Source: Escherichia coli (lineage in GTDB: Bacteria > Pseudomonadota > Gammaproteobacteria > Enterobacterales > Enterobacteriaceae). Taken from it: DNA of 64,000 bases. The DNA lies in assembly GCF_002854065.1 (NCBI RefSeq), contig NZ_CP024147.1; one strand, written 5' to 3'. This document shows, in pieces, positions 1 to 37,689 of this stretch. Positions within the stretch are counted from its first letter, which is position 1; each line of letters starts with the position of its first letter. A program made the translations under genes and the position numbers. The notes beneath the pieces were generated by a model, which was not told the DNA's origin, ran no database searches, and was given only the letters and a program-made list of their open reading frames with translations.

Positions 1-133
1 GGGTTAATTGCCCTGATGATTTAACTCGCTCATAGTTTTCTTTCGTTTTAAATAAAATATCTAAAACCAGTTCGTAAGGTCCGGCATTTTTCGAACGAAT
101 GACTTGCGCCAGTGAGACAATTGACTGTTTCAT
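1..133 (-). CDS. hypothetical protein, N-terminal fragment only (gene runs off the window start)
   Basis: Minus-strand ATG at 133..131 overlaps the TGA (132..130) of the upstream 456-aa ORF (ATGA coupling). Frame stays open to position 1 (MKQSIVSLAQVIRSKNAGPYELVLDILFKTKENYERVKSSGQLT...). Absent from the ORF track because it is truncated. Confidence 0.5.
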   Translation of the reverse strand, partial: MKQSIVSLAQVIRSKNAGPYELVLDILFKTKENYERVKSSGQLT

Positions 134-1500
134 GCCTGAACTCCTTCTGGCGTCACCTGTTCAATATGGAAATCAAAACGCAGAGCGTCGTTGGCTTCAA
201 TCAGGTGATATATGGAAAATTCGTATACCGGCCCGCCCTGGATATCAGAAGGGGAGAACGGGAACGCCAGGTTGCCTGCGGTAGCGATGCGGTTTTCATA
301 GCCGTAGTGCAGCATGGTAGAGCGCACCAGCGAGCAAACGCTATTGGCAATTTCCTGGGTCGGTGCAACTACATCAAGGACAATCCCCAGCTCATGCCCG
401 GCAGTTTGCATCGGTTCATGGTCGCCCATCACCCCGTTTTTACCGTACAGGTGGAAAATGATGCGAATGCTGTCATCGTCTAACGACAGGTTACGCGAAA
501 CGCTGGTTTTGACTTCATCGATGATTTTATCGATCCCGGCGATCATGATCGGGTCGCGCGTTCCGGCGATGGTCAGACAGCGGAAGCCCACCCGTCGCGC
601 ACCTTCCAGTTTCAGGGCATACGGCGTTTCTTCATGCTTAGAACCGCTGACGTACACTTCGCCGTCATTGACTGCTTTAAATGTGCAGCCTTTCAGGTTC
701 AACACGCCGCCAGGTCCTGGCAGGAAGTAGGGATCGGATTTCTCATACAGTGTGTGTGCAGCTGCTGACGTTTCGGTAAATTTACGCTTCGGATTAAATG
801 TCTTCAGCGTAAAGCCGTTGTCATCAATGATGCCCATCGCACAGTCAGAGCCTGAGCCGGGCGTTGCGGCGATTGCTGCGCACTCAAGGATTTTCCCACA
901 ATGCAGCGCCAGACCTTCATCAAAGCCTTGCATGATCGGTAGCGCAGCAAAGCAGGCCGGGTCGTAAGCGCGCCCACCCAGCACCACTTGCGCGCCTTCT
1001 TTCAGCGCCCGCTGGAAGGGTTCGATGCCCATTTGCGCGACGATATACGTACTTTCGTCAATCGCGTCGTGGGTTAACGGCGGGACAAAATCCAGCGCCG
1101 TGATTTTGCCGTTATCCAGCGCCTGGTGGACGATGGCTTTGTCAACGTCTGCCGGGATCAACGCCATCGAGAACGAGAGGTGCTCTTCCTGGGCAATCTC
1201 ATGAATTATTTCTCGGCACCACTCCAGGTGTGGTGCGGCACCAGAACCGCCAGCCGTTCCGATCACCACCGGTATATTATTTTGCACGCCTGCGGTGATC
1301 ATATAGCGCAGATCGCGCTTGACCCCTGCGCGATCGGTAAACGGTTTGCCTGCCCCGAGGTAGTGGGGGCCTGGATCGGAAGAGCCTGCATCAACGGCGA
1401 TCAGATCGGGCGATTCTGCCATCGCTTTACGGAAGCTCTCTTCCGGGAATCCATACCCGAGGATTGCCGTTGGCGATAAGACTTTAAAAGAACGAGCCAT
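130..1500 (-). CDS. uncharacterised 456-aa soluble protein co-operonic with methylaspartase (tentatively DUF1446/AtuA-like; family recalled, not searched)
   Basis: Long ORF MARSFKVLSPTAILGYGF...; start 4 nt downstream of the mal stop on the same strand; no hydrophobic TM stretch. Confidence 0.75.
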   Translation of the reverse strand: MARSFKVLSPTAILGYGFPEESFRKAMAESPDLIAVDAGSSDPGPHYLGAGKPFTDRAGVKRDLRYMITAGVQNNIPVVIGTAGGSGAAPHLEWCREIIHEIAQEEHLSFSMALIPADVDKAIVHQALDNGKITALDFVPPLTHDAIDESTYIVAQMGIEPFQRALKEGAQVVLGGRAYDPACFAALPIMQGFDEGLALHCGKILECAAIAATPGSGSDCAMGIIDDNGFTLKTFNPKRKFTETSAAAHTLYEKSDPYFLPGPGGVLNLKGCTFKAVNDGEVYVSGSKHEETPYALKLEGARRVGFRCLTIAGTRDPIMIAGIDKIIDEVKTSVSRNLSLDDDSIRIIFHLYGKNGVMGDHEPMQTAGHELGIVLDVVAPTQEIANSVCSLVRSTMLHYGYENRIATAGNLAFPFSPSDIQGGPVYEFSIYHLIEANDALRFDFHIEQVTPEGVQA

Positions 1501-1503
1501 TTG

Positions 1504-2745
1504 TTAATCCTTAGCCTGCAACAGCGCGATAGTACGATTCATTTCGTTGAAGACGATATCGAGGCCTTCGTCAAAACCCATCCCTGGTTTTACCAGCATA
1601 CGCATAGGGCGAGCGGCAAGGGCGACGTGGACACAGGTGCGGGCACTAACATCAGTTTCATTGCAGGTGCCGCCCTGGTACGCTTCCATGCTGTGGCTGT
1701 TGCAGTAAAGAACCGCATCGACGATGTTGTGAATACTTCCAAGATCCGGGGTTTTGATTTGCACCATGTGACAACTGGCGGCATCAGTGAAATCAACAAT
1801 ATCCTGGTAGGTGTTACACCATTCATCGGCCACAATTTTCACGCCGGAACCGAGGCGCGTCAGCTCTTTGGTAATCGCGGTCAGCAGGCGAATTTGGTCG
1901 GGCTTGTTACCGGCATCGACCGGCCCTTCAATGTAGAGCGGCAGGCCTTGCGCTTCTTTTTCCAGGCTGGCGATGTATTGCGCACAGCGAAGCGGATCCA
2001 TATCGAAGATCAGACCGATAGTGCCGTATACATCGATGTGCAGGGTAGGGTGGTAGCGTGCGCTGGTGCGCTTGCTCAGAATGCGATCCGACAGCCAGCG
2101 GACATATTCGCGCAGTTTTTCACCTTTAAAGCCCAGCTTCTCTTCGACGTTATTAATCAGCGCATGGGGCAGCACGTCGATGCCCTTAAGGATCATCTTA
2201 TCGACGGCGATATATCGATCGTCGCCGCTCTGGCCAAATAATGGAATGGATTCCGCCACGTGTGGCAACTGCCATTCATCACAGACCACTTCAGTTTTCA
2301 GACGGCCGGTTGCCAGCGCAGTAGCATCAAGCAGCGCCTGTGATAATCCGTAGCGCACGGCGGTATGCAGCAAGTTGCCGTCAATACGCAGTTTGTCGAA
2401 GAAACGGGCATTCGGCAGGAAAGCATCCACATCGCGGCCTACCAGTAATGGCTTGATATGGTCGTTGAGGAACGGAATAAAGTGCTCTGCGAGGAACAGT
2501 GGATCGCGACCACCTGCCCCGGAATACTGTACGGCAGCACAGTCACCTACAGCGACCGCGCCGTTTTCCAGAATCAACTGTACCGATACGCACTCCCCGG
2601 CCTGACGAACGGCGTTAAACCCCTGTGTTACCGGCTCCCCGGTATAAAAAAAGCCGTCATGACCCGCTCCGTTTTTTATCGCCTGCTGGTCATCGAAATA
2701 GAATGAGGAGTAGCCAGCGGTGAACAGAGCCTGTTTTATTTTCAT
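1504..2745 (-). CDS. mal: 3-methylaspartate ammonia-lyase (methylaspartase)
   Basis: 413 aa; MKIKQALFTAGYSSFYFDDQQAIKNGAGHDGF...CAAVQYSGAGGRDPLFLAEHFIP...VQIKTPDLG closely resembles clostridial methylaspartase as I recall it; start shares one nt with the glmE stop. Confidence 0.9.
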   Translation of the reverse strand: MKIKQALFTAGYSSFYFDDQQAIKNGAGHDGFFYTGEPVTQGFNAVRQAGECVSVQLILENGAVAVGDCAAVQYSGAGGRDPLFLAEHFIPFLNDHIKPLLVGRDVDAFLPNARFFDKLRIDGNLLHTAVRYGLSQALLDATALATGRLKTEVVCDEWQLPHVAESIPLFGQSGDDRYIAVDKMILKGIDVLPHALINNVEEKLGFKGEKLREYVRWLSDRILSKRTSARYHPTLHIDVYGTIGLIFDMDPLRCAQYIASLEKEAQGLPLYIEGPVDAGNKPDQIRLLTAITKELTRLGSGVKIVADEWCNTYQDIVDFTDAASCHMVQIKTPDLGSIHNIVDAVLYCNSHSMEAYQGGTCNETDVSARTCVHVALAARPMRMLVKPGMGFDEGLDIVFNEMNRTIALLQAKD

Positions 2746-4190
2746 TATGGTCTTTCTATTAATTTACTGTGGGATACAGCATTGATGTCATCTACAACCA
2801 TCTGGAATGTCGGTTGGCGTCCTTCAAAGCGTGCGCGTTCCGCGACGTAATCGTGGTGGAGGTCGAGAATATCTTTTGGCAATGGAACGGCTCCGGCTTC
2901 CAGTACGCGTATCGCGCCGGTGTTGTCACGGACCGGAAGAATATTGCCCGCGTTGCAGGCGGCTGGCGCAAACGGCACATCCAGTACGCCCGCTTCAAAT
3001 GCCAGCACCGTACCGCGCGCAATATCACCATTACCCAGTTCGAACACTTTATTCAGTACCGCGCGAACCTCGCTCTTAATCAGTTCAATTTCCAGTTCAA
3101 CCGCAGGGCACGGCGGGAATTTCTGCTCATTGACCATGTTGAGCATCTGGCGGGAGGCTTTCAGCCCCTGAATGTTGGCAGCGGCAGTCGGGATACCCCA
3201 GGCTTCGTGCGGACTTTTGGTGATGACTTTGGTGGCACCAGACATCCCCGCGACGGCTGCGCCCCAGGAGATAATAGCGAACGCTTTCGATTCGTCTTCC
3301 GGAAAGCCGCCCATCCACTGGTGAAACACGGTACTCAATTCATAGTCGGTATAGCCATAGCTCTGAAAGTATTCGTGTGCAAGTTCACGCAGAGACTGGA
3401 TCGCCGCAACATCCTGCGTCAGGCTGCCGACCTGGCCATAACCAACGGTGATAGATTTCACACCCTGTTCCAGTGCCAGCAAGCCTTCGATTATCGCGAT
3501 AGAGTGCGAGATAAACGGCGGGATCAGCGTACCCGTTAGTGGGCCAAACGGTTCGCGGTTGATGCGGATCCCGTGTTCTTCATACATCCCCATTAAACGG
3601 TCGCAGTACTGCCAGTCGCGGATCGATTTTTCCAGCGTTACGCGTTTGGCATACGGAATGTTGTAGGAAATGCCACCGCCTTCATAACTGGTAAAGCCGC
3701 TGGCCATTGAGATTTCAGCCAGCAGACGCGCATCTGGCGTGCCGTGGCGGATCTGTAGCGGTTTTTGCAGGGTTTCGGTGAGGCGACGGCAAGCTGCGAC
3801 ACCATGGTTAACTACCGGTAAACCGTTCAGTTTAGAGGTTCCGGCTTCGATGGATTTTTTAATCCCTACAGCCGCTTCTTCGTACCGATTCAGACGGGTA
3901 TATGCATCGATGGTGCTTGGCAGCAGATCGCACTCTTCTTGTAGTGTTTTCAGCAGTTCGATGTGTTCGTCCATCAGCGCCACACCTGCGCGCGGTTGGC
4001 TAAGGGTTTTACCTTCCTTGTCTGCTTTCAGCAGCGCAAGAGAGAAGCGTTTATGCTCAGGGATGGTTTGTTGGTATTTAACGCCATCTTCAAAGATTTC
4101 AACATCCTTGCCGGTTTCCCAGGTTTTCAGTACCTGTTGCCGCTCGGTCATGAATTCGTCATGGGTTAATTTCTTATTTCGAAGTTCCAT
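2745..4190 (-). CDS. glmE: glutamate mutase E (epsilon, catalytic) subunit
   Basis: 481 aa, MELRNKKLTHDEFMTERQQVLKTWETGKDV...; size and N-terminus match methylaspartate mutase E chain; sits between glmL and mal. Confidence 0.88.
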   Translation of the reverse strand: MELRNKKLTHDEFMTERQQVLKTWETGKDVEIFEDGVKYQQTIPEHKRFSLALLKADKEGKTLSQPRAGVALMDEHIELLKTLQEECDLLPSTIDAYTRLNRYEEAAVGIKKSIEAGTSKLNGLPVVNHGVAACRRLTETLQKPLQIRHGTPDARLLAEISMASGFTSYEGGGISYNIPYAKRVTLEKSIRDWQYCDRLMGMYEEHGIRINREPFGPLTGTLIPPFISHSIAIIEGLLALEQGVKSITVGYGQVGSLTQDVAAIQSLRELAHEYFQSYGYTDYELSTVFHQWMGGFPEDESKAFAIISWGAAVAGMSGATKVITKSPHEAWGIPTAAANIQGLKASRQMLNMVNEQKFPPCPAVELEIELIKSEVRAVLNKVFELGNGDIARGTVLAFEAGVLDVPFAPAACNAGNILPVRDNTGAIRVLEAGAVPLPKDILDLHHDYVAERARFEGRQPTFQMVVDDINAVSHSKLIERP

Positions 4191-4208
4191 TGATTGCAGC
4201 CTTAATTG

Positions 4209-5597
4209 TTATAGGGTTAAGCATTGAATACTGGTGCGCGCGGCGGCCAGCGGATCGACTCTGGCGACGTTTGCCAGCAGTGGTAATAGCCCCCGGGAAT
4301 CGCGGTAATATTCAAATTCGGTCGGTAAGAGAATGCGTTTACCGTCGTCGTTTAACTCGCGGTATTTCAACCAGTGATGCATATCGAACTGACTGGCACG
4401 CGAGAGCCATCCGCCGGATCCGACGACTTTACGCACGGTTGTCAGGTCACGTCCCATCTGTAAATCGACATTGCCGACGCAGGTGCAGACCTCTTTTTTG
4501 GTGCCCGCATGTCTTTCGGTGGCATAACCCACACACAGTCCGGCCAGGACGGTATCGAAATATTTCTCTTCTGCATTTGCGGGTAAGTAGTCGGGATGAG
4601 CGACTAGATGACGGAGGTAATGATAAAAAGCGTCCAGCTGTGCGGGTTGCTGAGCAAAATTCACATTGACTAACTCTTTCGCACTTTCACCAACCACCAC
4701 TGCCGAGACGCGCATTCCCAGATCGCCTTCCACCGTCCGTTTTACGAAGGGTTCCGGTACGCCGTGTAAAACGGTGTCGGGCGAGAGCGTGTTGGCACAG
4801 GCGGAATAAACATCGGTGGTTGCGCCGCCCATGTCGATCAGCATGAACTCTTTCCAGCTGTGATCGACGTTACTGATTGCCTTGACCAGTTCAAAGACCG
4901 TCCATGGTGTCGGCATTGGTTCTTCGCCTGTTTTATCAACAATGACATCCAGCCCTTTCCCTTTAACGATGCGTTTAAGGAATATGTCGCAAATAGCCTG
5001 GCGTGCGGCTAAAGGGTTCGGATGGTCAAGATCGGGCAGAACATTGTCGACGATGGTCAGGTCTTTATGCCCGAGGATCTCCTGCACCTCGTCCTGAATA
5101 TCCCGGTTTCCGGCATAAATAATGGCGCAGTCGAGTTTGGATTCTGCCAGCACACGGGCGTTATTCAGTCCGTAGCTTTCTTCTCCGCCGTCGGTGCCGC
5201 CGGTGAACAAGAGAATATCGGGCTGCGTTTCTTCCAGTGCCTGGATATCACGGCGGTTCAGCTTGTAGGCGTAATATTGCGCAATTTTAGCACCCGCAGA
5301 GTGAGCGGTTACTTTCGCGGTTTCCAGGGTGATAGAAGGCACCAATCCCATTGCGGCAACCGCCAGCCCACCTTTGGCAGAGGAGGAATACTTCAATGCA
5401 ACCTCACCGCTGTTTAACAGGGGGAGGGCATTATCTACGTTTAACACCTGGTTCAGGCTGGAGAAAAACCCCTTCGCCAGATGATGGGTGGTGGTTGGGG
5501 TCAGTACGTGGTTAACCAACGTTAACGCGTCCCCCTCCCGGGTGAAGAGGGCTGCTTTGGTCCACGTCGATCCAATATCGACAGAGACGATTTGCAT
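4209..5597 (-). CDS. glmL: glutamate mutase accessory protein (MutL/GlmL-like, ATPase-fold putative reactivase)
   Basis: 462 aa, [18 protein letters not shown]... (actin/hexokinase-like N-terminal phosphate motif); located between S and E subunit genes as in clostridial mutS-mutL-mutE. Confidence 0.8.
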   Translation of the reverse strand: MQIVSVDIGSTWTKAALFTREGDALTLVNHVLTPTTTHHLAKGFFSSLNQVLNVDNALPLLNSGEVALKYSSSAKGGLAVAAMGLVPSITLETAKVTAHSAGAKIAQYYAYKLNRRDIQALEETQPDILLFTGGTDGGEESYGLNNARVLAESKLDCAIIYAGNRDIQDEVQEILGHKDLTIVDNVLPDLDHPNPLAARQAICDIFLKRIVKGKGLDVIVDKTGEEPMPTPWTVFELVKAISNVDHSWKEFMLIDMGGATTDVYSACANTLSPDTVLHGVPEPFVKRTVEGDLGMRVSAVVVGESAKELVNVNFAQQPAQLDAFYHYLRHLVAHPDYLPANAEEKYFDTVLAGLCVGYATERHAGTKKEVCTCVGNVDLQMGRDLTTVRKVVGSGGWLSRASQFDMHHWLKYRELNDDGKRILLPTEFEYYRDSRGLLPLLANVARVDPLAAARTSIQCLTL

Positions 5598-6046
5598 CAG
5601 ATAGCCTCTTCAAGAATACGAGTATCAACGTCATGACGTTGGTTGATATCGTGGGCCATCAGCTGACAAACATCTTCTAAGTCATGACTTGGGGCAAAGA
5701 CGCGATCAAATCCCATCTCTTTGAATTTGGTTTCCACGTCAGCGAAGTCATGTTTTCCGACCACCAGGTTACCGCCCACATAGAGCAGGATGTCCCCCAG
5801 TCCACGCTCGATGCAGCGTTCGCGCATGCCCAGACAGTCGATATCGCCATGCCCATAGATAGAGGAGACGACAATCGCGTCAGCGCCAGTTTCAATGGCC
5901 GCATCAATATATTCGTCCTGGCTGACCATTACGCCCAGATTAATGACTCTGAAGTCGTGGTTGCTAAAAACGCGGTCCAGAACTTTATTGCCTACTGCAT
6001 GGCAGTCCGCGCCAATAACGCCAATCACAAGTGTTGCTTTCTTCAT
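5597..6046 (-). CDS. glutamate mutase S (sigma, cobalamin-binding) subunit; symbol left blank because glmS/mutS clash with unrelated E. coli genes
   Basis: [23 protein letters not shown]... carries the DxHxxG B12-binding signature; start moved from track ORF 6109 to ATG 6046 with AAGGA RBS 7 nt upstream; stop shares one nt with glmL start. Confidence 0.85.
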
Positions 6047-6592
6047 GGGTAATCCTTTGTAAGACAGAGAGTAAAATAAGTTACACACGTCGTATTTATG
6101 GCCGTTCATAACGGCACAGGTTTAATATCACAGGAGTGTCTTTATCTGACCGTAATGTTGCAATTGATCTATTTTCAAAATGTCTTTCGGGAAATGATTG
6201 TTTAAAGTGTGTTTTTAAATTCCCATGTTAATTCAGTATGTTATGTCAACTAATGTCATGAATGTTAAATTTTTAAAATTAACTTGATTTAATGTATTGA
6301 GATAATTGTGATCTACTTCTAATTTGCATTTTAGTGATATGGGTTTAGCCATGAGTAAATGCATTTCATAAAATTTAAGTCGAATTTCACTGCAATTCAT
6401 CTCTGCTTAATGTAAAAATAATGTTGAAAATAACAAATGGTTAATGATTCATGCGAATTATGACGTTAGTTAGCTCTTTTGATTTTTCGTAAAAAAGAGA
6501 GGTACATGAAGGTGCTACCAGTATGAGTAACGTTAATCAAAGGTTTTATTACGTCTGGCAATAACGCAGGCCATTTTCGCGACTGGGTGGAT

Positions 6593-7015
6593 TTAATCAG
6601 TATAATCCTCATACAATATTTCAGGATTAACTGAACCGTTAACCGGGTTTTGGTGTTGAAATTTAGAAATGGCGGAGTCAATCAATGAAGACAGTATCGA
6701 AAAAATAACTGTGTCAGAACTAATTTCAATTAATCCTTCTCGTTGTTGACCAAAAAAGATATTTATCTTGATTTCATTTGTACTACGGCAATCAATATGT
6801 AGTAATTTTTGATCGCTGAGATTTTCTGTTTCATAAATGTTTTTGGCGATAGTCGGATGTATTGATGCCAGACATCTGCTCAGATAAGCCAGATCCTTTA
6901 GGGAACACCCCGCTGAGTAGAGGATGTCAGAGAATTTTTGTGTGTCAACTGTTGTCTCTGAAGCGTATGTTGCATTGACAGGAAGGGTGTTGAAAGAGAT
7001 TTGAGATGGGATCAT
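6593..7015 (-). CDS. hypothetical acidic 140-aa protein, unknown function
   Basis: Intact ORF in AT-rich DNA; net negative charge (about 17 D/E vs 9 K/R); no TM segment; GGAAAG about 9 nt upstream of ATG; co-directional with the 314-aa ORF 81 bp upstream. Confidence 0.6.
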   Translation of the reverse strand: MIPSQISFNTLPVNATYASETTVDTQKFSDILYSAGCSLKDLAYLSRCLASIHPTIAKNIYETENLSDQKLLHIDCRSTNEIKINIFFGQQREGLIEISSDTVIFSILSSLIDSAISKFQHQNPVNGSVNPEILYEDYTD

Positions 7016-7096
7016 TATTTAAATCTTTCCGTGAGTAATAAAAATTAATCCCCAGGCATTGTTTAACAATATTTGCCATAGGGGATATATAGAAAA

Positions 7097-8041
7097 TTAA
7101 AGTATTTTATTGGCTTCGGTTAACTGATCTATAACCAGTGCCAGATTGGTAAACATTTTGAAAAAGCGATACTGGCTCGGAATATCTCTTTCAAAGACGA
7201 AACATTCAAGGTCATTGTTTGAAAAATAAAGGACTAGTGTTGCTGATTCGTCAGGGAAAACATGGAAATGTATCTGGTTACCAGAAGGAGGATAGTCCAG
7301 AAGAAGGGTATCTTTGCCCGTCACATACCTGTTGTTGTCGTGGACGCTACGCTCACACTTCATCAGAGGTGTCAGGATACTCATGTATTCATCTGATGTT
7401 AATTTATTAAAATCATCATTCATTTTAAAGAAACGATAAAGTAACAGTACATCCTCTTGCGTAACCGGTTCGTTTGTTTTTAGAGGGAAATAAGCGGGAA
7501 CCAGAAGATGAGGTTCTAATCTATTTTGTTGAGCGCTATAACTGAATTTGAACATAAATTCCGGATCGCTCATCAATTGAGCGACATAATTATGCCTGGC
7601 TTCGAAAATTTTAATTTTTATCAGGTTAAATAAGTCTGTTTCGTCATCCTGTATTAAAAGACATTGGCCATAGCAGCCAGGCTTTTTTTCATTATAAGCA
7701 GAAACGGTTATTCTGTCAGAGGTGTCAACGTTATATTCAAAAGCCAGATAGTGACCTTCTTCATCGCGATTTGTTTCCAGGTTATTTAAATTCATCACAT
7801 GAAGTGTTTGCAATGCTGATTCAATGAGCTGTTGACTCTCTGAGGTAAATGTTTCGCGCTGCGTTGTATAAAGTGTATCAATTCCAACGACTATCCGATG
7901 TGGGTCAAGGATGGCGGCAATCATCTTTATTACCTGCACAGTCACGGGTGATGTCATTGATTCTTTATCTGTTTTTAGAGAATCATTAGATGGCCAACCT
8001 GAGAAGCGATTGACAGCCGAACCGATATTATCAGGACTCAT
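7097..8041 (-). CDS. hypothetical 314-aa protein, unknown function
   Basis: Intact ORF in AT-rich DNA; GAGG 8 nt upstream of ATG; Ser/Thr/Asn-rich N-terminus; no TM segment, P-loop or HEXXH motif; not recognisable as any K-12 protein. Confidence 0.7.
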   Translation of the reverse strand: MSPDNIGSAVNRFSGWPSNDSLKTDKESMTSPVTVQVIKMIAAILDPHRIVVGIDTLYTTQRETFTSESQQLIESALQTLHVMNLNNLETNRDEEGHYLAFEYNVDTSDRITVSAYNEKKPGCYGQCLLIQDDETDLFNLIKIKIFEARHNYVAQLMSDPEFMFKFSYSAQQNRLEPHLLVPAYFPLKTNEPVTQEDVLLLYRFFKMNDDFNKLTSDEYMSILTPLMKCERSVHDNNRYVTGKDTLLLDYPPSGNQIHFHVFPDESATLVLYFSNNDLECFVFERDIPSQYRFFKMFTNLALVIDQLTEANKIL

Positions 8042-8495
8042 AGCAGCAACCTCATTGTAATCAAGCGAGGCGCTGAGCGTACTCGGCTATAGAAAAACTA
8101 ACTTGCAAAAATCGCTCATTTTTCATTTATCAGGCGAAAGTGGTCTCTGTACACTCAGAAACAATCACTCCCGCTAAGTCATACCTGTTTCATCGATACA
8201 TTTAAGTGATTATTACTAATGAAACAATAACATAACGGGCTTACGGTCGGTGCTCATAAAGGCAACAATCAATTAACTTTGATAAAAATATGTTATGTAA
8301 AATAGCAACAAATTGGCTACTCTAATCAATTGGTATTATAAAAAGTGGATAAGGCGGTTCTGTTAAATAAAATACTGGTTTTTTATCTATACCTTTTCAT
8401 TGTAATAATTGTGTTGCATAAATATTTCACAATAAATTAACAATAAAATCACCAATGATCTATGGTTTATACATAATTAACATATTTGGTTGGTT

Positions 8496-11584: not shown

Positions 11585-11698
11585 ATGTGGTATTTCGCAT
11601 GGATTCTGGGAACGCTTCTTGCCTGTTCGTTTGGGGTAATCACCGCGCTGGCGCTTGAGCACGTCGAATCAGGCAAAGCCGGTCAAGAAGACATCTGA
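11585..11698 (+). CDS. cydX: cytochrome bd-I small subunit CydX (37 aa)
   Basis: atg tgg tat ttc gca tgg... = MWYFAWILGTLLACSFGVITALALEHVESGKAGQEDI; too short for the ORF track. Confidence 0.9.
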   Translation: MWYFAWILGTLLACSFGVITALALEHVESGKAGQEDI

Positions 11699-11991
11699 TG
11701 AGTAAGATTATCGCAACCTTGTATGCGGTAATGGACAAGCGCCCCCTGCGGGCGCTTTCCTTCGTGATGGCGCTTCTGTTAGCAGGATGTATGTTTTGGG
11801 ACCCATCTCGTTTTGCCGCGAAGACCAGTGAACTGGAAATCTGGCATGGTTTATTGCTGATGTGGGCCGTCTGTGCTGGTGTGATTCACGGCGTGGGCTT
11901 TCGTCCGCAGAAGGTTCTTTGGCAAGGGATTTTTTGCCCATTGCTTGCCGATATTGTTCTCATTGTCGGGCTGATTTTCTTCTTCTTTTAA
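11698..11991 (+). CDS. ybgE: cyd operon inner membrane protein YbgE
   Basis: 97 aa, MSKIIATLYAVMDKRPLRALSFVMALLLAGC...; start overlaps cydX stop. Confidence 0.9.
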   Translation: MSKIIATLYAVMDKRPLRALSFVMALLLAGCMFWDPSRFAAKTSELEIWHGLLLMWAVCAGVIHGVGFRPQKVLWQGIFCPLLADIVLIVGLIFFFF

Positions 11992-12140: not shown

Positions 12141-13234
<1,094 letters not shown>

Positions 13235-13237
13235 GCC

Positions 13238-13666
13238 ATGGCCAGAGCGCGTGGACGAGGTCGTCGCGATCTCAAGTCCGAAATCAACATTGTACCGTTG
13301 CTGGACGTACTGCTGGTGCTGTTGCTGATCTTTATGGCGACAGCGCCCATCATCACCCAGAGCGTGGAGGTCGATCTGCCAGACGCTACTGAATCACAGG
13401 CGGTGAGCAGTAACGATAATCCGCCAGTGATTGTTGAAGTGTCTGGTATTGGTCAGTACACCGTGGTGGTTGAGAAAGATCGCCTGGAGCGTTTACCACC
13501 AGAGCAGGTGGTGGCGGAAGTGTCCAGCCGTTTCAAGGCCAACCCGAAAACGGTCTTTCTGATCGGTGGCGCAAAAGATGTGCCTTACGATGAAATAATT
13601 AAAGCACTGAACTTGTTACATAGTGCGGGTGTGAAATCGGTTGGTTTAATGACGCAGCCTATCTAA
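13238..13666 (+). CDS. tolR: Tol-Pal system protein TolR
   Basis: 142 aa, MARARGRGRRDLKSEINIVPLLDVLLVLLLIF... Confidence 0.97.
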   Translation: MARARGRGRRDLKSEINIVPLLDVLLVLLLIFMATAPIITQSVEVDLPDATESQAVSSNDNPPVIVEVSGIGQYTVVVEKDRLERLPPEQVVAEVSSRFKANPKTVFLIGGAKDVPYDEIIKALNLLHSAGVKSVGLMTQPI

Positions 13667-13730: not shown

Positions 13731-15026
13731 GTGTCAAAGGCAACCGAACAAAACGACAAGCTCAAGCGGGCGATAATTATTTCAGCAGTGCTGCATGTCA
13801 TCTTATTTGCGGCGCTGATCTGGAGTTCGTTCGATGAGAATATAGAAGCTTCAGCTGGAGGCGGCGGTGGTTCGTCCATCGACGCTGTCATGGTTGATTC
13901 AGGTGCGGTAGTTGAGCAGTACAAACGCATGCAAAGCCAGGAATCAAGCGCGAAGCGTTCTGATGAGCAGCGCAAGATGAAGGAACAGCAGGCTGCTGAA
14001 GAACTGCGTGAGAAACAAGCGGCTGAACAGGAACGCCTGAAGCAACTTGAGAAAGAGCGGTTAGCTGCTCAGGAACAGAAAAAGCAGGCTGAAGAAGCCG
14101 CAAAACAGGCCGAGTTAAAGCAGAAGCAAGCGGAAGAGGCGGCAGCGAAAGCGGCGGCAGATGCTAAAGCGAAGGCCGAAGCGGATGCTAAAGCTGCGGA
14201 AGATGCAGCGAAGAAAGCGGCTGCAGATGCGAAGAAAAAAGCAGAAGCAGAAGCCGCCAAAGCCGCAGCCGAAGCGCAGAAAAAAACCGAGGCAGCAGCT
14301 GCGGCGCTGAAGAAGAAAGCGGAAGCGGCAGAAGCAGCTGCAGCTGAAGCAAGAAAGAAAGCGGCAACTGAAGCTGCTGAAAAAGCCAAGGCAGAAGCTG
14401 AGAAGAAAGCGGCTGCTGAAAAGGCTGCAGCTGATAAGAAAGCGGCAGCAGAGAAAGCTGCAGCCGACAAAAAAGCAGCAGAAAAAGCGGCTGCAGAAAA
14501 GGCAGCAGCTGATAAGAAAGCAGCGGCAGAAAAAGCCGCCGCAGACAAAAAAGCGGCAGCTGCAAAAGCAGCAGCTGCAAAAGCAGCAGCTGCAAAAGCA
14601 GCAGCTGAAAAAGCCGCTGCAGCAAAAGCTGCCGCAGAGGCAGATGATATTTTCGGTGAGCTAAGCTCTGGTAAGAATGCACCGAAAACGGGGGGAGGGG
14701 CGAAAGGGAACAATGCTTCGCCTGCCGGGAGTGGTAATACTAAAAACAATGGCGCATCAGGGGCCGATATCAATAACTATGCCGGGCAGATTAAATCTGC
14801 TATCGAAAGTAAGTTCTATGACGCATCGTCCTATGCAGGCAAAACCTGTACGCTGCGCATAAAACTGGCACCCGATGGTATGTTACTGGATATCAAACCT
14901 GAAGGTGGCGATCCCGCACTTTGTCAGGCTGCGTTGGCAGCAGCTAAACTTGCGAAGATCCCGAAACCACCAAGCCAGGCAGTATATGAAGTGTTCAAAA
15001 ACGCGCCATTGGACTTCAAACCGTAA
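13731..15026 (+). CDS. tolA: Tol-Pal system protein TolA (431 aa)
   Basis: GTG start, MSKATEQNDKLKRAIIISAVLHVILFAALIW...; long Ala/Lys-rich domain II encoded by tandem repeats; C-terminal domain III intact. Confidence 0.95.
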   Translation: MSKATEQNDKLKRAIIISAVLHVILFAALIWSSFDENIEASAGGGGGSSIDAVMVDSGAVVEQYKRMQSQESSAKRSDEQRKMKEQQAAEELREKQAAEQERLKQLEKERLAAQEQKKQAEEAAKQAELKQKQAEEAAAKAAADAKAKAEADAKAAEDAAKKAAADAKKKAEAEAAKAAAEAQKKTEAAAAALKKKAEAAEAAAAEARKKAATEAAEKAKAEAEKKAAAEKAAADKKAAAEKAAADKKAAEKAAAEKAAADKKAAAEKAAADKKAAAAKAAAAKAAAAKAAAEKAAAAKAAAEADDIFGELSSGKNAPKTGGGAKGNNASPAGSGNTKNNGASGADINNYAGQIKSAIESKFYDASSYAGKTCTLRIKLAPDGMLLDIKPEGGDPALCQAALAAAKLAKIPKPPSQAVYEVFKNAPLDFKP

Positions 15027-15158: not shown

Positions 15159-16451
15159 ATGAAGCAGGCATTACGAGTAGCATTTGGTTTTCTCATATTG
15201 TGGGCATCAGTTCTTCATGCTGAAGTCCGCATTGTGATCGACAGCGGTGTAGATTCCGGTCGTCCTATTGGAGTTGTTCCTTTCCAGTGGGCGGGCCCTG
15301 GTGCGGCACCTGAAGATATTGGCGGCATCGTTGCTGCCGACTTGCGTAACAGCGGTAAATTTAATCCGTTAGATCGCGCTCGTCTGCCACAGCAGCCGGG
15401 TAGTGCGCAGGAAGTACAACCAGCTGCATGGTCCGCGCTGGGTATTGACGCTGTAGTTGTCGGTCAGGTCACTCCGAATCCGGATGGTTCTTACAATGTT
15501 GCTTATCAACTTGTTGACACTGGCGGCGCACCGGGTACTGTACTTGCTCAGAACTCGTACAAAGTGAACAAGCAGTGGCTGCGTTATGCTGGTCATACCG
15601 CCAGTGATGAAGTGTTTGAAAAACTGACCGGTATTAAAGGTGCGTTCCGTACCCGTATTGCCTACGTTGTTCAGACCAACGGCGGTCAGTTCCCGTATGA
15701 ACTGCGCGTATCTGACTATGACGGTTACAACCAGTTTGTCGTTCACCGTTCACCACAGCCGCTGATGTCCCCGGCGTGGTCACCAGACGGTTCTAAACTG
15801 GCTTATGTGACCTTCGAAAGCGGTCGTTCCGCGCTGGTTATCCAAACGCTGGCAAACGGCGCTGTACGTCAGGTGGCTTCATTCCCGCGTCACAACGGTG
15901 CGCCTGCATTCTCGCCAGACGGCAGCAAACTGGCATTCGCCTTGTCGAAAACCGGTAGCCTGAACCTGTACGTAATGGATTTGGCTTCTGGTCAGATCCG
16001 CCAGGTGACTGATGGTCGCAGTAACAATACCGAACCGACCTGGTTCCCGGACAGCCAGAACCTGGCATTTACTTCTGACCAGGCCGGTCGTCCACAGGTT
16101 TATAAAGTGAATATCAACGGCGGTGCGCCACAACGTATTACCTGGGAAGGTTCGCAGAACCAGGATGCGGATGTCAGCAGCGACGGTAAATTTATGGTAA
16201 TGGTCAGCTCCAACGGTGGGCAGCAGCACATTGCCAAACAAGATCTGGCAACGGGAGGCGTACAAGTTCTGTCGTCCACGTTCCTGGATGAAACGCCAAG
16301 TCTGGCACCTAACGGCACTATGGTAATCTACAGCTCTTCTCAGGGGATGGGATCCGTGCTGAATTTGGTTTCTACAGATGGGCGTTTCAAAGCGCGTCTT
16401 CCGGCAACTGATGGACAGGTCAAATTCCCTGCCTGGTCGCCGTATCTGTGA
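15159..16451 (+). CDS. tolB: Tol-Pal system periplasmic protein TolB
   Basis: 430 aa from second [33 protein letters not shown]... Confidence 0.97.
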
Positions 16452-16461
16452 TAATAATTAA

Positions 16462-17007
<546 letters not shown>

Positions 17008-17016
17008 GAGAATTGC

Positions 17017-17808
17017 ATGAGCAGTAACTTCAGACATCAACTATTGAGTCTGTCGTTACTGGTTGGTATAGCGGCCCCCTGGGCCGCTTTTGCTCAGGCA
17101 CCAATCAGTAGTGTCGGCTCAGGCTCGGTCGAAGACCGCGTCACTCAACTTGAGCGTATTTCTAATGCTCACAGCCAGCTTTTAACCCAACTCCAGCAAC
17201 AACTCTCTGATAATCAATCCGATATTGATTCCCTGCGTGGTCAGATTCAGGAAAATCAGTATCAACTGAATCAGGTCGTGGAGCGGCAAAAGCAGATCCT
17301 GTTGCAGATCGACAGCCTCAGCAGCGGTGGTGCAGCGGCGCAATCAACCAGCGGTGATCAAAGCGGTGCGGCGGCATCAACGACGCCGACAGCTGATGCT
17401 GGTACTGCGAATGCTGGCGCGCCGGTGAAAAGCGGTGATGCAAACACGGATTACAATGCAGCTATTGCGCTGGTGCAGGATAAATCCCGCCAGGATGACG
17501 CAATGGTGGCATTTCAGAATTTCATCAAAAATTACCCTGATTCAACTTACCTGCCAAACGCCAATTATTGGCTGGGTCAGTTAAACTACAACAAGGGTAA
17601 AAAAGATGATGCGGCGTACTATTTTGCTTCGGTAGTGAAAAACTATCCGAAGTCACCAAAGGCTGCAGATGCGATGTTTAAAGTCGGTGTCATCATGCAG
17701 GACAAAGGTGACACCGCAAAAGCGAAAGCCGTATACCAGCAGGTTATCAGTAAATACCCTGGTACTGATGGCGCTAAACAGGCACAAAAACGTCTGAACG
17801 CGATGTAA
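17017..17808 (+). CDS. cpoB: cell division coordinator CpoB (YbgF)
   Basis: 263 aa, signal peptide, coiled-coil, TPR-like C-terminus. Confidence 0.95.
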   Translation: MSSNFRHQLLSLSLLVGIAAPWAAFAQAPISSVGSGSVEDRVTQLERISNAHSQLLTQLQQQLSDNQSDIDSLRGQIQENQYQLNQVVERQKQILLQIDSLSSGGAAAQSTSGDQSGAAASTTPTADAGTANAGAPVKSGDANTDYNAAIALVQDKSRQDDAMVAFQNFIKNYPDSTYLPNANYWLGQLNYNKGKKDDAAYYFASVVKNYPKSPKAADAMFKVGVIMQDKGDTAKAKAVYQQVISKYPGTDGAKQAQKRLNAM

Positions 17809-17972: not shown

Positions 17973-18048
17973 GGGTCGTTAGCTCAGTTGGTAGAGCAGT
18001 TGACTTTTAATCAATTGGTCGCAGGTTCGAATCCTGCACGACCCACCA
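17973..18048 (+). tRNA. lysT: tRNA-Lys (anticodon UUU)
   Basis: 76-nt gggtcgttagctcagttggtagagcagttgacttttaatcaattggtcgcaggttcgaatcctgcacgacccacca with encoded CCA. Confidence 0.97.
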
Positions 18049-18083
18049 CTAACCTAGTTAGTTGTAGTATCCAGCGTAGTATC

Positions 18084-18159
18084 GGGTGATTAGCTCAGCT
18101 GGGAGAGCACCTCCCTTACAAGGAGGGGGTCGGCGGTTCGATCCCGTCATCACCCACCA
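18084..18159 (+). tRNA. valT: tRNA-Val (anticodon UAC)
   Basis: 76-nt gggtgattagctcagctgggagagcacctcccttacaaggagggggtcggcggttcgatcccgtcatcacccacca. Confidence 0.97.
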
Positions 18160-18161
18160 CC

Positions 18162-18237
18162 GGGTCGTTAGCTCAGTTGGTAGAGCAGTTGACTTTTAAT
18201 CAATTGGTCGCAGGTTCGAATCCTGCACGACCCACCA
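18162..18237 (+). tRNA. lysW: tRNA-Lys (UUU)
   Basis: Identical copy of the lysT sequence. Confidence 0.97.
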
Positions 18238-18288
18238 CTAATTACGGTGGGTTCGGTGGAAGTAGTTTGTAGTATCCAGCGCAGTATC

Positions 18289-18364
18289 GGGTGATTAGCT
18301 CAGCTGGGAGAGCACCTCCCTTACAAGGAGGGGGTCGGCGGTTCGAACCCGTCATCACCCACCA
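18289..18364 (+). tRNA. valZ: tRNA-Val (UAC), T-loop variant
   Basis: Same as valT except gttcgaaccc instead of gttcgatccc in the T-loop. Confidence 0.95.
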
Positions 18365-18367
18365 CTC

Positions 18368-18443
18368 GGGTCGTTAGCTCAGTTGGTAGAGCAGTTGACT
18401 TTTAATCAATTGGTCGCAGGTTCGAATCCTGCACGACCCACCA
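18368..18443 (+). tRNA. lysY: tRNA-Lys (UUU)
   Basis: Identical copy. Confidence 0.97.
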
Positions 18444-18495
18444 GTTTTAACATCAAACTCAGATGTTAAGCGTGAAGGATAACGTTGCGCCAGCA

Positions 18496-18541
18496 ACGGC
18501 CCGTAGGGCGAGCGAAGCGAGTCATCCTGCACGACCCACCA
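18496..18541 (+). repeat. tRNA-Lys 3'-end remnant repeat, copy 1
   Basis: acggcccgtagggcgagcgaagcgagtc followed by atcctgcacgacccacca, the exact last 18 nt of tRNA-Lys; no 5' half. Confidence 0.7.
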
Positions 18542-18589
18542 ATCTTAAAGATTGGCCCCGAGTAAAAATCTTTCAGGTAACACCCGTAT

Positions 18590-18665
18590 GGGTCGTTAGC
18601 TCAGTTGGTAGAGCAGTTGACTTTTAATCAATTGGTCGCAGGTTCGAATCCTGCACGACCCACCA
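18590..18665 (+). tRNA. lysZ: tRNA-Lys (UUU)
   Basis: Identical copy. Confidence 0.97.
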
Positions 18666-18698
18666 TCCTGAATGATTAAAGCAGCATAATCCCGCAAG

Positions 18699-18774
18699 GG
18701 GTCGTTAGCTCAGTTGGTAGAGCAGTTGACTTTTAATCAATTGGTCGCAGGTTCGAATCCTGCACGACCCACCA
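18699..18774 (+). tRNA. lysQ: tRNA-Lys (UUU)
   Basis: Identical copy; last gene of the array. Confidence 0.97.
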
Positions 18775-36735: not shown

Positions 36736-37689
36736 TTAACCTATCTCCTGTAACGCATGTCTCTGGCGTTCGACGATATTGGTCCACAAATTGTCTTTAT
36801 CGTCAGTCCACAAATTAATCAGCAAGGCAAAAAAGCGTTCAGCTGCCGGAGAAAGCACGGCATCTTTGCGGCGAATAATCCCCAATGTCCGACGTATAAC
36901 GGGTTCCACCAGTGGGATACCAATAATCGAAGAATAGGGCGCATGGGGCATTGCCAGACCAGGAAGCGCTGAAATCCCCAGTCCTGCCTCCACCAGTCCT
37001 AATGACGTCGAAAGATGACGCACTTCGTAAAACCAGTCCAGCTTCCAGGGCTTGTCGGCTAGCTGTTGTTCTATCAACAGTCGGTTGCCGCTGGAGGAGC
37101 GTACGCCAATCATTTTGTAACCCACTAACTCCTGCCATTCTACAAGCTGCTTTTTGGCCAATGGATGGTCACGCCGACAGGCCAGCACGAACGGCTCGTT
37201 GACCAGTGGGCTAAAATCAATGGATGAATTTGTGACGTTGTTCATGTTTATGCCAAAGTCTGATTCGTTACATAGCACCGATTCCATGCAATTATTCGTG
37301 CCTTGTTCCAGAATCCGCACTTTAATATTGGGATACAGCTCATTAAATTTACCGATTGCCAGCGGTAAAAAATAAAATACTGCGGTCGGAATACACGCTA
37401 ACGTCACCATACCACGATGATAAGCATTCATATCACGAATATTAAAAAGCGTTTCATCGAATTTCTTTATTAATTCCCGCGCCTCCGGGAGCAACCTTTT
37501 TCCTGCTTTTGTTAACGTAACCTTGCGAGTTGTACGCTCAAATAGTTGAATATGTAAATCTTCCTCCATCTTTTTTATTCTTCGCGTTAATGCAGGTTGC
37601 GTAATGTTGAGTAATTTAGCGGCATTGTTAAATGAACTGGACTCTGCCAGTATGACAAATGCCTTCATACTTGATAATTCATGCTTCAT
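36736..37689 (-). CDS. ybhD: LysR-family transcriptional regulator YbhD
   Basis: 317 aa from MKHELSSMKAFVILAESSSFNNAAKLLNITQPALTRRIKKMEEDL... (HTH); track ORF trimmed by 21 codons. Confidence 0.93.
   Translation of the reverse strand: MKHELSSMKAFVILAESSSFNNAAKLLNITQPALTRRIKKMEEDLHIQLFERTTRKVTLTKAGKRLLPEARELIKKFDETLFNIRDMNAYHRGMVTLACIPTAVFYFLPLAIGKFNELYPNIKVRILEQGTNNCMESVLCNESDFGINMNNVTNSSIDFSPLVNEPFVLACRRDHPLAKKQLVEWQELVGYKMIGVRSSSGNRLLIEQQLADKPWKLDWFYEVRHLSTSLGLVEAGLGISALPGLAMPHAPYSSIIGIPLVEPVIRRTLGIIRRKDAVLSPAAERFFALLINLWTDDKDNLWTNIVERQRHALQEIG

Follow-up and report, generated by a model that had tools for sequence, protein, structure and literature searches.

Does the tolA gene in this stretch of Escherichia coli DNA (64,000 nucleotides, hereafter the window) carry an expanded array of repeats, and, if so, how were the additional units gained? 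A sequence-only reading of the window had described domain II of the TolA protein as encoded by reiterated Ala/Lys units, apparently expanded relative to K-12.

The tolA gene and its operon

The open reading frame at 13731-15026 was assigned to tolA based on the operon order, the PRK09510 and PF06519 matches, and the residues of the membrane-anchor motif. The features of the locus are as follows.

12141-12545, + strand: ybgC (open reading frame and annotation of the homologous locus)
12542-13234, + strand: tolQ (open reading frame and annotation of the homologous locus)
13238-13666, + strand: tolR (open reading frame and annotation of the homologous locus)
13731-15026, + strand: tolA coding sequence, an open reading frame with a GTG start, 431 amino acids plus stop; the homologue in strain 100416 is annotated as tolA with the same bounds
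13767-13832, + strand: domain I, the N-terminal membrane anchor, about residues 13-34 (translation; AF2 helix at residues 2-34)
14733-15017, + strand: domain III, the TolA C-terminal domain (Pfam PF06519, residues 335-429, whole 96-position profile, E = 2.1e-38)
15159-16451, + strand: tolB (open reading frame and the strain 100416 annotation moved by a constant offset)
16486-17007, + strand: pal (open reading frame and the strain 100416 annotation moved by a constant offset)
17017-17808, + strand: cpoB (open reading frame and the strain 100416 annotation moved by a constant offset)

The order ybgC-tolQRA-tolB-pal-cpoB was the same as in the annotated K-12 and 100416 loci. The product matched the TolA equivalog model NCBIfam PRK09510 over its full length (555.8 bits; cut-off, 213), as well as a second TolA equivalog model, TIGR02794 (308.5 bits; cut-off, 59.45). 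The SHLS membrane-anchor motif of TolA has been described previously (PMC10666116), and its four residues, S18, H22, L29, and S33, were all in place in the translation. The full-length equivalog match, together with the match to the C-terminal domain, indicates that the TolA of the window is intact.

The repeat array of domain II

The repeats occupy the following parts of tolA.

14118-14642, + strand: Ala/Lys/Glu/Asp-rich reiterated part of domain II, comprising degenerate upstream repeats and the core array (TRF rows 14118-14629; direct-repeat families D1-D3)
14409-14642, + strand: core tract of tandem repeats, with 15 units that are 15 or 18 bp long except for one of 12 bp (unit table)
14556-14607, + strand: perfect period-15 run of 52 bp, consisting of three full copies of GCAGCTGCAAAAGCA at 14556-14600 and 7 further bases
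14568-14597, + strand: the extra 30 bp relative to K-12, O145, and XJ34, namely AAAAK units 11 and 12 (alignments)

The core units encode AAAEK, AAADKK, AAEK, AAAAK, and AAAEA, and TRF reported an imperfect 15-bp array at 14406-14629; strong tandem repeats were found by TRF in tolA only within the 64-kb window. Both the TRF array and the unit table bear out the description of the central part of tolA as reiterated Ala/Lys units. The three consecutive 15-bp copies noticed in the sequence-only reading were also found, at 14556-14600 instead of 14557-14601, a shift of one base that makes no practical difference. Across periods of 4 to 120, the 52-bp run was the sole run of at least three perfect copies in the window.

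The 52-bp perfect run is more than chance in a biased array. The remaining 15-nt units of the array matched each other at 74% per base, and the probability of 37 consecutive matches is therefore about 1.7e-5. When the codons of the array were shuffled 20,000 times, a run of 52 bp was never obtained, the longest being 39 bp.

Comparison with K-12

The tolA gene of K-12 MG1655 (b0739, NP_415267.1) is 1266 bp long and encodes 421 amino acids, so the two lengths given in the sequence-only reading, 431 residues here and 421 residues in K-12, were both correct. Alignment showed that the sole length difference is 30 bp, or 10 amino acids, with AAAAK present three times in the window and once in K-12, exactly the two extra 5-residue units that had been proposed. 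The tract of K-12 ends in ...AAADKK AAAAK AAAEK AAAAK AAAEA-DD, while that of the window ends in ...AAADKK AAAAK AAAAK AAAAK AAAEK AAAAK AAAEA-DD. When the units were parsed identically, the window contained 15 and K-12 contained 13. These counts come from direct parsing of both genes; the TRF copy numbers (14.3 in the window and 13.3 in K-12) were set aside, as they are not comparable owing to different array start points.

The architecture and operon of K-12 TolA are identical to those of the window, and the additional residues (AAAAK AAAAK) are inserted after K-12 residue 279. The copies are identical, and the exact site of the extra 30 bp is thus arbitrary within 14553-14597. The two genes also differ by 17 nucleotide substitutions, of which two change an amino acid (E156D and A186T), so that identity to the K-12 allele, the outcome that would have spoken against an expansion, was not what the alignment gave.

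Repeat number in natural isolates and complete genomes

Repeat polymorphism of tolA has been published. In MG1655, the tract was described as consisting of 13 repeats, imperfect and 15 or 18 bp long (Zhou, Michiels and Aertsen 2012, PLoS One 7:e47766, PMC3477136). According to that paper, an earlier survey of 234 natural isolates (Zhou, Vanoirbeek, Aertsen and Michiels 2012, Res Microbiol 163:316, PMID 22659144) found 8-16 units, with 13 units in 66%. The tract of the window matches the published description of the tolA VNTR, namely imperfect 15/18-bp, Lys/Ala-rich units in the C-terminal part of domain II: the gene, the tract, and the helix-forming units are the same, the change is likewise in frame, and the copy number of 15 lies inside the published natural range.

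The instability of the tract has been measured in a single experimental study. Contractions arose at a frequency of 6.9e-5 in clonal populations, with deletions of five units dominating, and this frequency fell to 15% in a recA mutant; the rate was 3.3-fold higher in a uvrD mutant and was unchanged by mutS, while no expansion was found among 150 screened colonies (PMC3477136). The RecA dependence and the enhancement in the uvrD mutant suggest that the units recombine with one another and that polymerase slippage is not the sole process (PMC3477136). The array had been called slippage-prone and polymorphic in length on the basis of the window alone; the polymorphism is well founded, but slippage needs this qualification, as the contractions are largely RecA-dependent and uvrD-enhanced.

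We surveyed the length of tolA in complete E. coli genomes, where the gene was present in 5,425 of 5,426. In a systematic sample of 60 rows taken down the match ranking, 1266 bp was found in 40 rows (67%), close to the published 66%. The remaining rows comprised 1311 bp (six rows), 1299 bp (three), 1215 bp and 1185 bp (two each), 1296, 1290, 1251, 1221, and 1188 bp (one each), 1310 bp (one; the 1310-bp example that was fetched is annotated as frameshifted), and one partial match. A further sample of 40 rows added lengths of 1281, 1275, 1260, and 1254 bp. Altogether, the intact alleles fell into 14 length classes (1185-1311 bp), all multiples of 3 and whole repeat blocks apart. The allele of the window is expanded relative to K-12 and to the modal allele, as had been supposed, but its 431 residues are not extreme, since alleles of 436 residues occur in roughly 8-10% of the sampled genomes.

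One representative of each length class was fetched and parsed into units. Among these representatives, nearly all length variation affected either units 1-9 or the degenerate repeats upstream of them, whereas in the window the distal unit 10 is tripled in perfect copies. The distal block AAAAK AAAEK AAAAK AAAEA was constant in the sampled alleles, with the exceptions of the allele shared by the window and strain 100416 and of FDAARGOS_1285, which has a 12-bp deletion in this block. The tolA gene of KY178 (fetched locus 3001-4296) is also 1296 bp long and encodes 431 amino acids, but reaches this length through other units: AAAEK replaces one AAADKK, and an additional AAAEK-AAADKK pair is present. 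Equal length therefore does not mean the same allele, and PCR sizing alone would confuse the two.

Several interrupted matches were seen in the survey. Two complete genomes, A1.S1.18 and TUM11356, gave 1310-bp tolA matches; in A1.S1.18 the gene is annotated as a frameshifted pseudogene, and its units parse like those of the 1311-bp allele. In NIPH17_0036, the match covered just 61% of the gene in two pieces. These cases could represent real loss of tolA or sequencing errors. An exact look-up of nine TolA sequences in a 15-billion-protein collection found none of them, but as the K-12 positive control was also absent, this negative result for a low-complexity protein carries no weight; the nine were the TolA proteins of the window, 100416, XJ34, and K-12, together with hypothetical variants of these backgrounds (window or K-12) that had two, three, four, or five copies.

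Other coding repeats in bacteria offer a comparison. In the TCT repeat of E. coli ahpC, the CTGGCG repeat of E. coli mutL, and bacterial VNTR and contingency loci, as in tolA, misalignment changes the copy number and alters the protein while the frame is kept (PMC3477136). In contrast to repeats of the ahpC and mutL type, tolA has long, imperfect units (15/18 bp) whose stability does not depend on MutS. The change in tolA tunes the length of a structural spacer and neither switches an enzyme activity nor turns a gene on or off. An on/off phase-variable contingency locus was ruled out, as the units are 12, 15, or 18 bp long and all sampled intact alleles are in frame.

Relatives of the three-copy allele

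Unit 10 is single in most genomes, for example, in K-12, O145, and XJ34. It was doubled in about 35 of 5,424 genomes (synthetic two-copy query, at least 99%, single piece), and tripled in the window and strain 100416 only among the 5,425 complete genomes searched. A synthetic four-copy query gave no single-piece match in complete genomes.

Strain 100416, the genome closest to the window, was obtained from human stool in the Gambia (WP_202794813.1, NZ_CM128593.1), and its tolA is 1296 bp long with an identical three-copy tract. The window and 100416 are 99.94-99.98% identical over about 59 kb, with about 25 SNPs, and 100416 carries two IS1 insertions that are absent from the window. These differences indicate that the two are distinct genomes in which the three-copy tract was sequenced twice independently. 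The IS1 sites correspond to window positions 1-76, beside an AtuA-family gene, and about 37253-37262, where a LysR-family regulator gene is split; at the latter site, the blastn pieces share 10 bases (37253-37262), consistent with a target-site duplication in 100416.

The tolA genes of the two genomes are one nucleotide apart, in an A-run that gives Thr186 in the window and Asn186 in 100416. Codon 186 (window 14286-14287) reads AAAAAAGCC (Ala) in K-12, AAAAAAACC (Thr) in the window, and AAAAAAAAC (Asn) in 100416; these differences may be true substitutions or homopolymer polishing errors in one assembly.

That the extra 30 bp are an assembly or sequencing artefact, the true gene having 13 units, is extremely improbable. 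The region is repetitive, 100416 is a whole-genome-shotgun chromosome record, and the two genes disagree at a homopolymer prone to polishing errors. However, the identical tract is present in two genomes separated by two IS1 and about 25 SNPs, and the run is just 52 bp long with unique flanks, easily spanned by single reads. The change is also in frame, and one- and two-copy alleles on the same background are found in independent complete genomes.

A two-copy allele on the background of the window is found in CUWW06. Its tolA is the window gene shortened by 15 bp and changed at one SNP, and the flanks that were fetched (351 nt upstream and 674 nt downstream) are identical to the window. Next in closeness is XJ34 (99.5% over 25 kb), in which unit 10 is single. 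Its tolA of 1266 bp corresponds to the window gene shortened by 30 bp and shows 0-1 synonymous difference, while tolQR and tolB-pal-cpoB do not differ from those of the window. The O145 allele differs from the window gene minus 30 bp at 4 sites. In SMS-3-5, unit 10 is also doubled, but with an imperfect second copy and on a background 18 SNPs away, which indicates that unit 10 has been duplicated more than once.

These comparisons bear on import of the three-copy allele from another lineage by homologous recombination, which we consider highly improbable. Core genes of E. coli recombine often, and the doubled unit 10 of SMS-3-5 lies on a distant background. Nevertheless, the non-repeat part of tolA is 0-1 base from XJ34 and one base from CUWW06 with identical flanking tolQR and tolB-pal-cpoB, and no other three-copy genome that could have served as a donor was found among the 5,425.

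Codon 275 of XJ34 (window 14553-14555) is GCA and not GCG. This 13-unit type with GCA at codon 275 was found in only four complete genomes (XJ34, XJ6-3, TB06051, and OZ197100), and GCA at this position is the exact sequence left by deleting the first one or two AAAAK units of a two- or three-copy allele. The codon may reflect nothing more than a synonymous SNP, or it may be the trace of an allele that contracted to 13 units again; in the latter case, the one-copy allele of XJ34 could be a contraction product of the expanded allele and not its ancestor.

Origin of the additional units

Our results make it very likely that the window carries a rare 15-unit allele of the known tolA VNTR, in which unit 10 was duplicated in place, from one to two to three copies. 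The array encodes the C-terminal part of domain II, the helical spacer spanning the periplasm. Since the units are alike, misalignment during replication or RecA-mediated recombination would add or remove whole units, always in frame. The gain would have occurred on an allele background otherwise common to O145-type, XJ34, and CUWW06 strains. The first misalignment may have been seeded by an ancestral near-repeat spaced by 15 bp, GCAGCTGCAAAAGCA followed by GCAGCTGAAAAAGCC; the first duplication would then have created a perfect 30-bp repeat, making the second step easy. The resulting TolA is intact and has gained 10 helical residues, immediately N-terminal to the end of domain II that binds CpoB. 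We infer the mechanism of gain, either slippage or unequal recombination, because no expansion was recovered experimentally (PMC3477136).

The order from one to two to three copies would be the simplest reading of the alleles: it is parsimonious, although the two-copy intermediate sits in another strain. A gain of both units in a single 30-bp event is unlikely. Multi-unit changes are common at the tolA tract, as the dominance of 5-unit deletions among experimental contractions illustrates, and the events are not datable from the present data. However, a jump from one to three copies requires a two-unit misalignment, yet just one good copy was present, and the two-copy allele, found on the same background in CUWW06 (one SNP) and in about 35 genomes, fits steps of a single unit. 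Given the two-copy relative, the single event is less economical than stepwise gain.

Consequence for TolA

The position of the insertion can be related to a known binding site. Residues 280-313 of K-12 TolA bind CpoB/YbgF, as reported by Krachler 2010 and cited in PMC8928145. The equivalent segment in the window is the following.

14598-14699, + strand: CpoB/YbgF-binding segment equivalent, window residues 290-323 (unit table)

The insertion after K-12 residue 279 leaves this segment uninterrupted and contiguous with domain III, and increases its distance from the remainder of domain II by 10 residues relative to K-12.

Domain II has been described as an extended helix or a helical hairpin, and its structure and rigidity are required for efficient force transduction and outer-membrane stabilisation (PMC10666116, PMC8928145). 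A single-sequence AF2 model of the window protein contained helices at residues 60-200 and 208-311, with pLDDT mostly 70-88 and a pTM of 0.27. The helix break at about 201-207 was found in both alleles, and the second helix extended to residue 311 in the window protein and to residue 302 in that of K-12. The pTM values of the two models were 0.25-0.27, and secondary structure alone was therefore used; the modelled helices agree with the helical-hairpin description in the literature. An alpha-helix rises 1.5 Å per residue. The ten extra helical residues would thus add about 15 Å to the arm or to the fully extended reach.

The phenotypes of alleles with 2, 6, 8, 13, 26, and 39 units have been determined (PMC3477136). 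Deoxycholate tolerance grows with the number of units, 3.2-fold at 26 and 15.5-fold at 39; phage fd plated at 28-43% of wild type on every non-13-unit allele tested; and very short and very long alleles were both worse on high salt at low pH (PMC3477136). By interpolation of these data, the effect of 15 units on deoxycholate tolerance should be small, and the phenotypic effect of the two extra units is probably small at most. An effect on fd infection is possible, as every non-13 allele tested was impaired (PMC3477136).

It is doubtful that the expansion is adaptive, for instance by raising the tolerance of bile salts or by making cells less susceptible to filamentous phage or group A colicins, instead of reflecting neutral drift. 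The published rise in deoxycholate tolerance with unit number and the reduced fd plating on non-13 alleles would agree with a benefit, as would the human stool origin of the lineage. On the other hand, doubling the tract from 13 to 26 units changes deoxycholate tolerance just 3.2-fold, so that two units would have a very small effect, and the allele is limited to one small clade of two genomes. Moreover, stabilising selection is suggested by the modal number of 13 units, present in about two thirds of strains. Very doubtful, too, is the stronger proposal that the distal AAAAK unit, beside the CpoB-binding end of domain II, forms a hotspot of its own in which expansion has been active recently, and that selection, for example by bile salts, filamentous phage, or group A colicins, has driven its growth from one to two to three copies in a gut lineage. 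If this were true, the tract would be a contingency locus adapting in a natural population, with the register of the TolA helix shifted relative to CpoB/PBP1B.

Surroundings of the operon

Upstream of cydAB, window positions 1-8100 hold an accessory cluster encoding methylaspartate mutase (glmS/glmL/glmE), methylaspartate ammonia-lyase, and AtuA-family and DUF4387 proteins, which suggests a pathway of the glutamate-fermentation type. At least 80% of window positions 1-25000 was found in one place in only 189 of 5,425 complete E. coli genomes. The ybgE gene (window 11698-11991) is 294 bp long, as in K-12, and 297 bp long in XJ34, a 3-bp in-frame indel.

Downstream of cpoB, an array of Lys/Val tRNA genes at 17973-18774 contains the same seven genes as K-12 (lysT-valT-lysW-valZ-lysY-lysZ-lysQ). 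Three spacers of the array are about 100 bp shorter than in K-12 (35, 51, and 33 nt compared with 135, 149, and 132 nt), and the spacing in XJ34 is that of the window.

Significance

The phenomenon itself is already known, as a published and experimentally characterised tolA VNTR, and the allele is already in RefSeq. No new question is raised, since the polymorphism, its range, and its dynamics have been published. The addition made here is a modest one: an apparent triplication of the normally invariant distal unit 10, together with natural alleles that carry it once, twice, and three times on one background.

How far the link carrying proton-motive force to the outer membrane can reach, and how stiff it is, depends on domain II; when the repeat number changes greatly, both the tolerance of bile salts and the susceptibility to filamentous phage are altered (PMC3477136, PMC10666116). 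The set of alleles with one, two, and three copies clearly illustrates stepwise evolution of a protein-coding VNTR in a bacterium.
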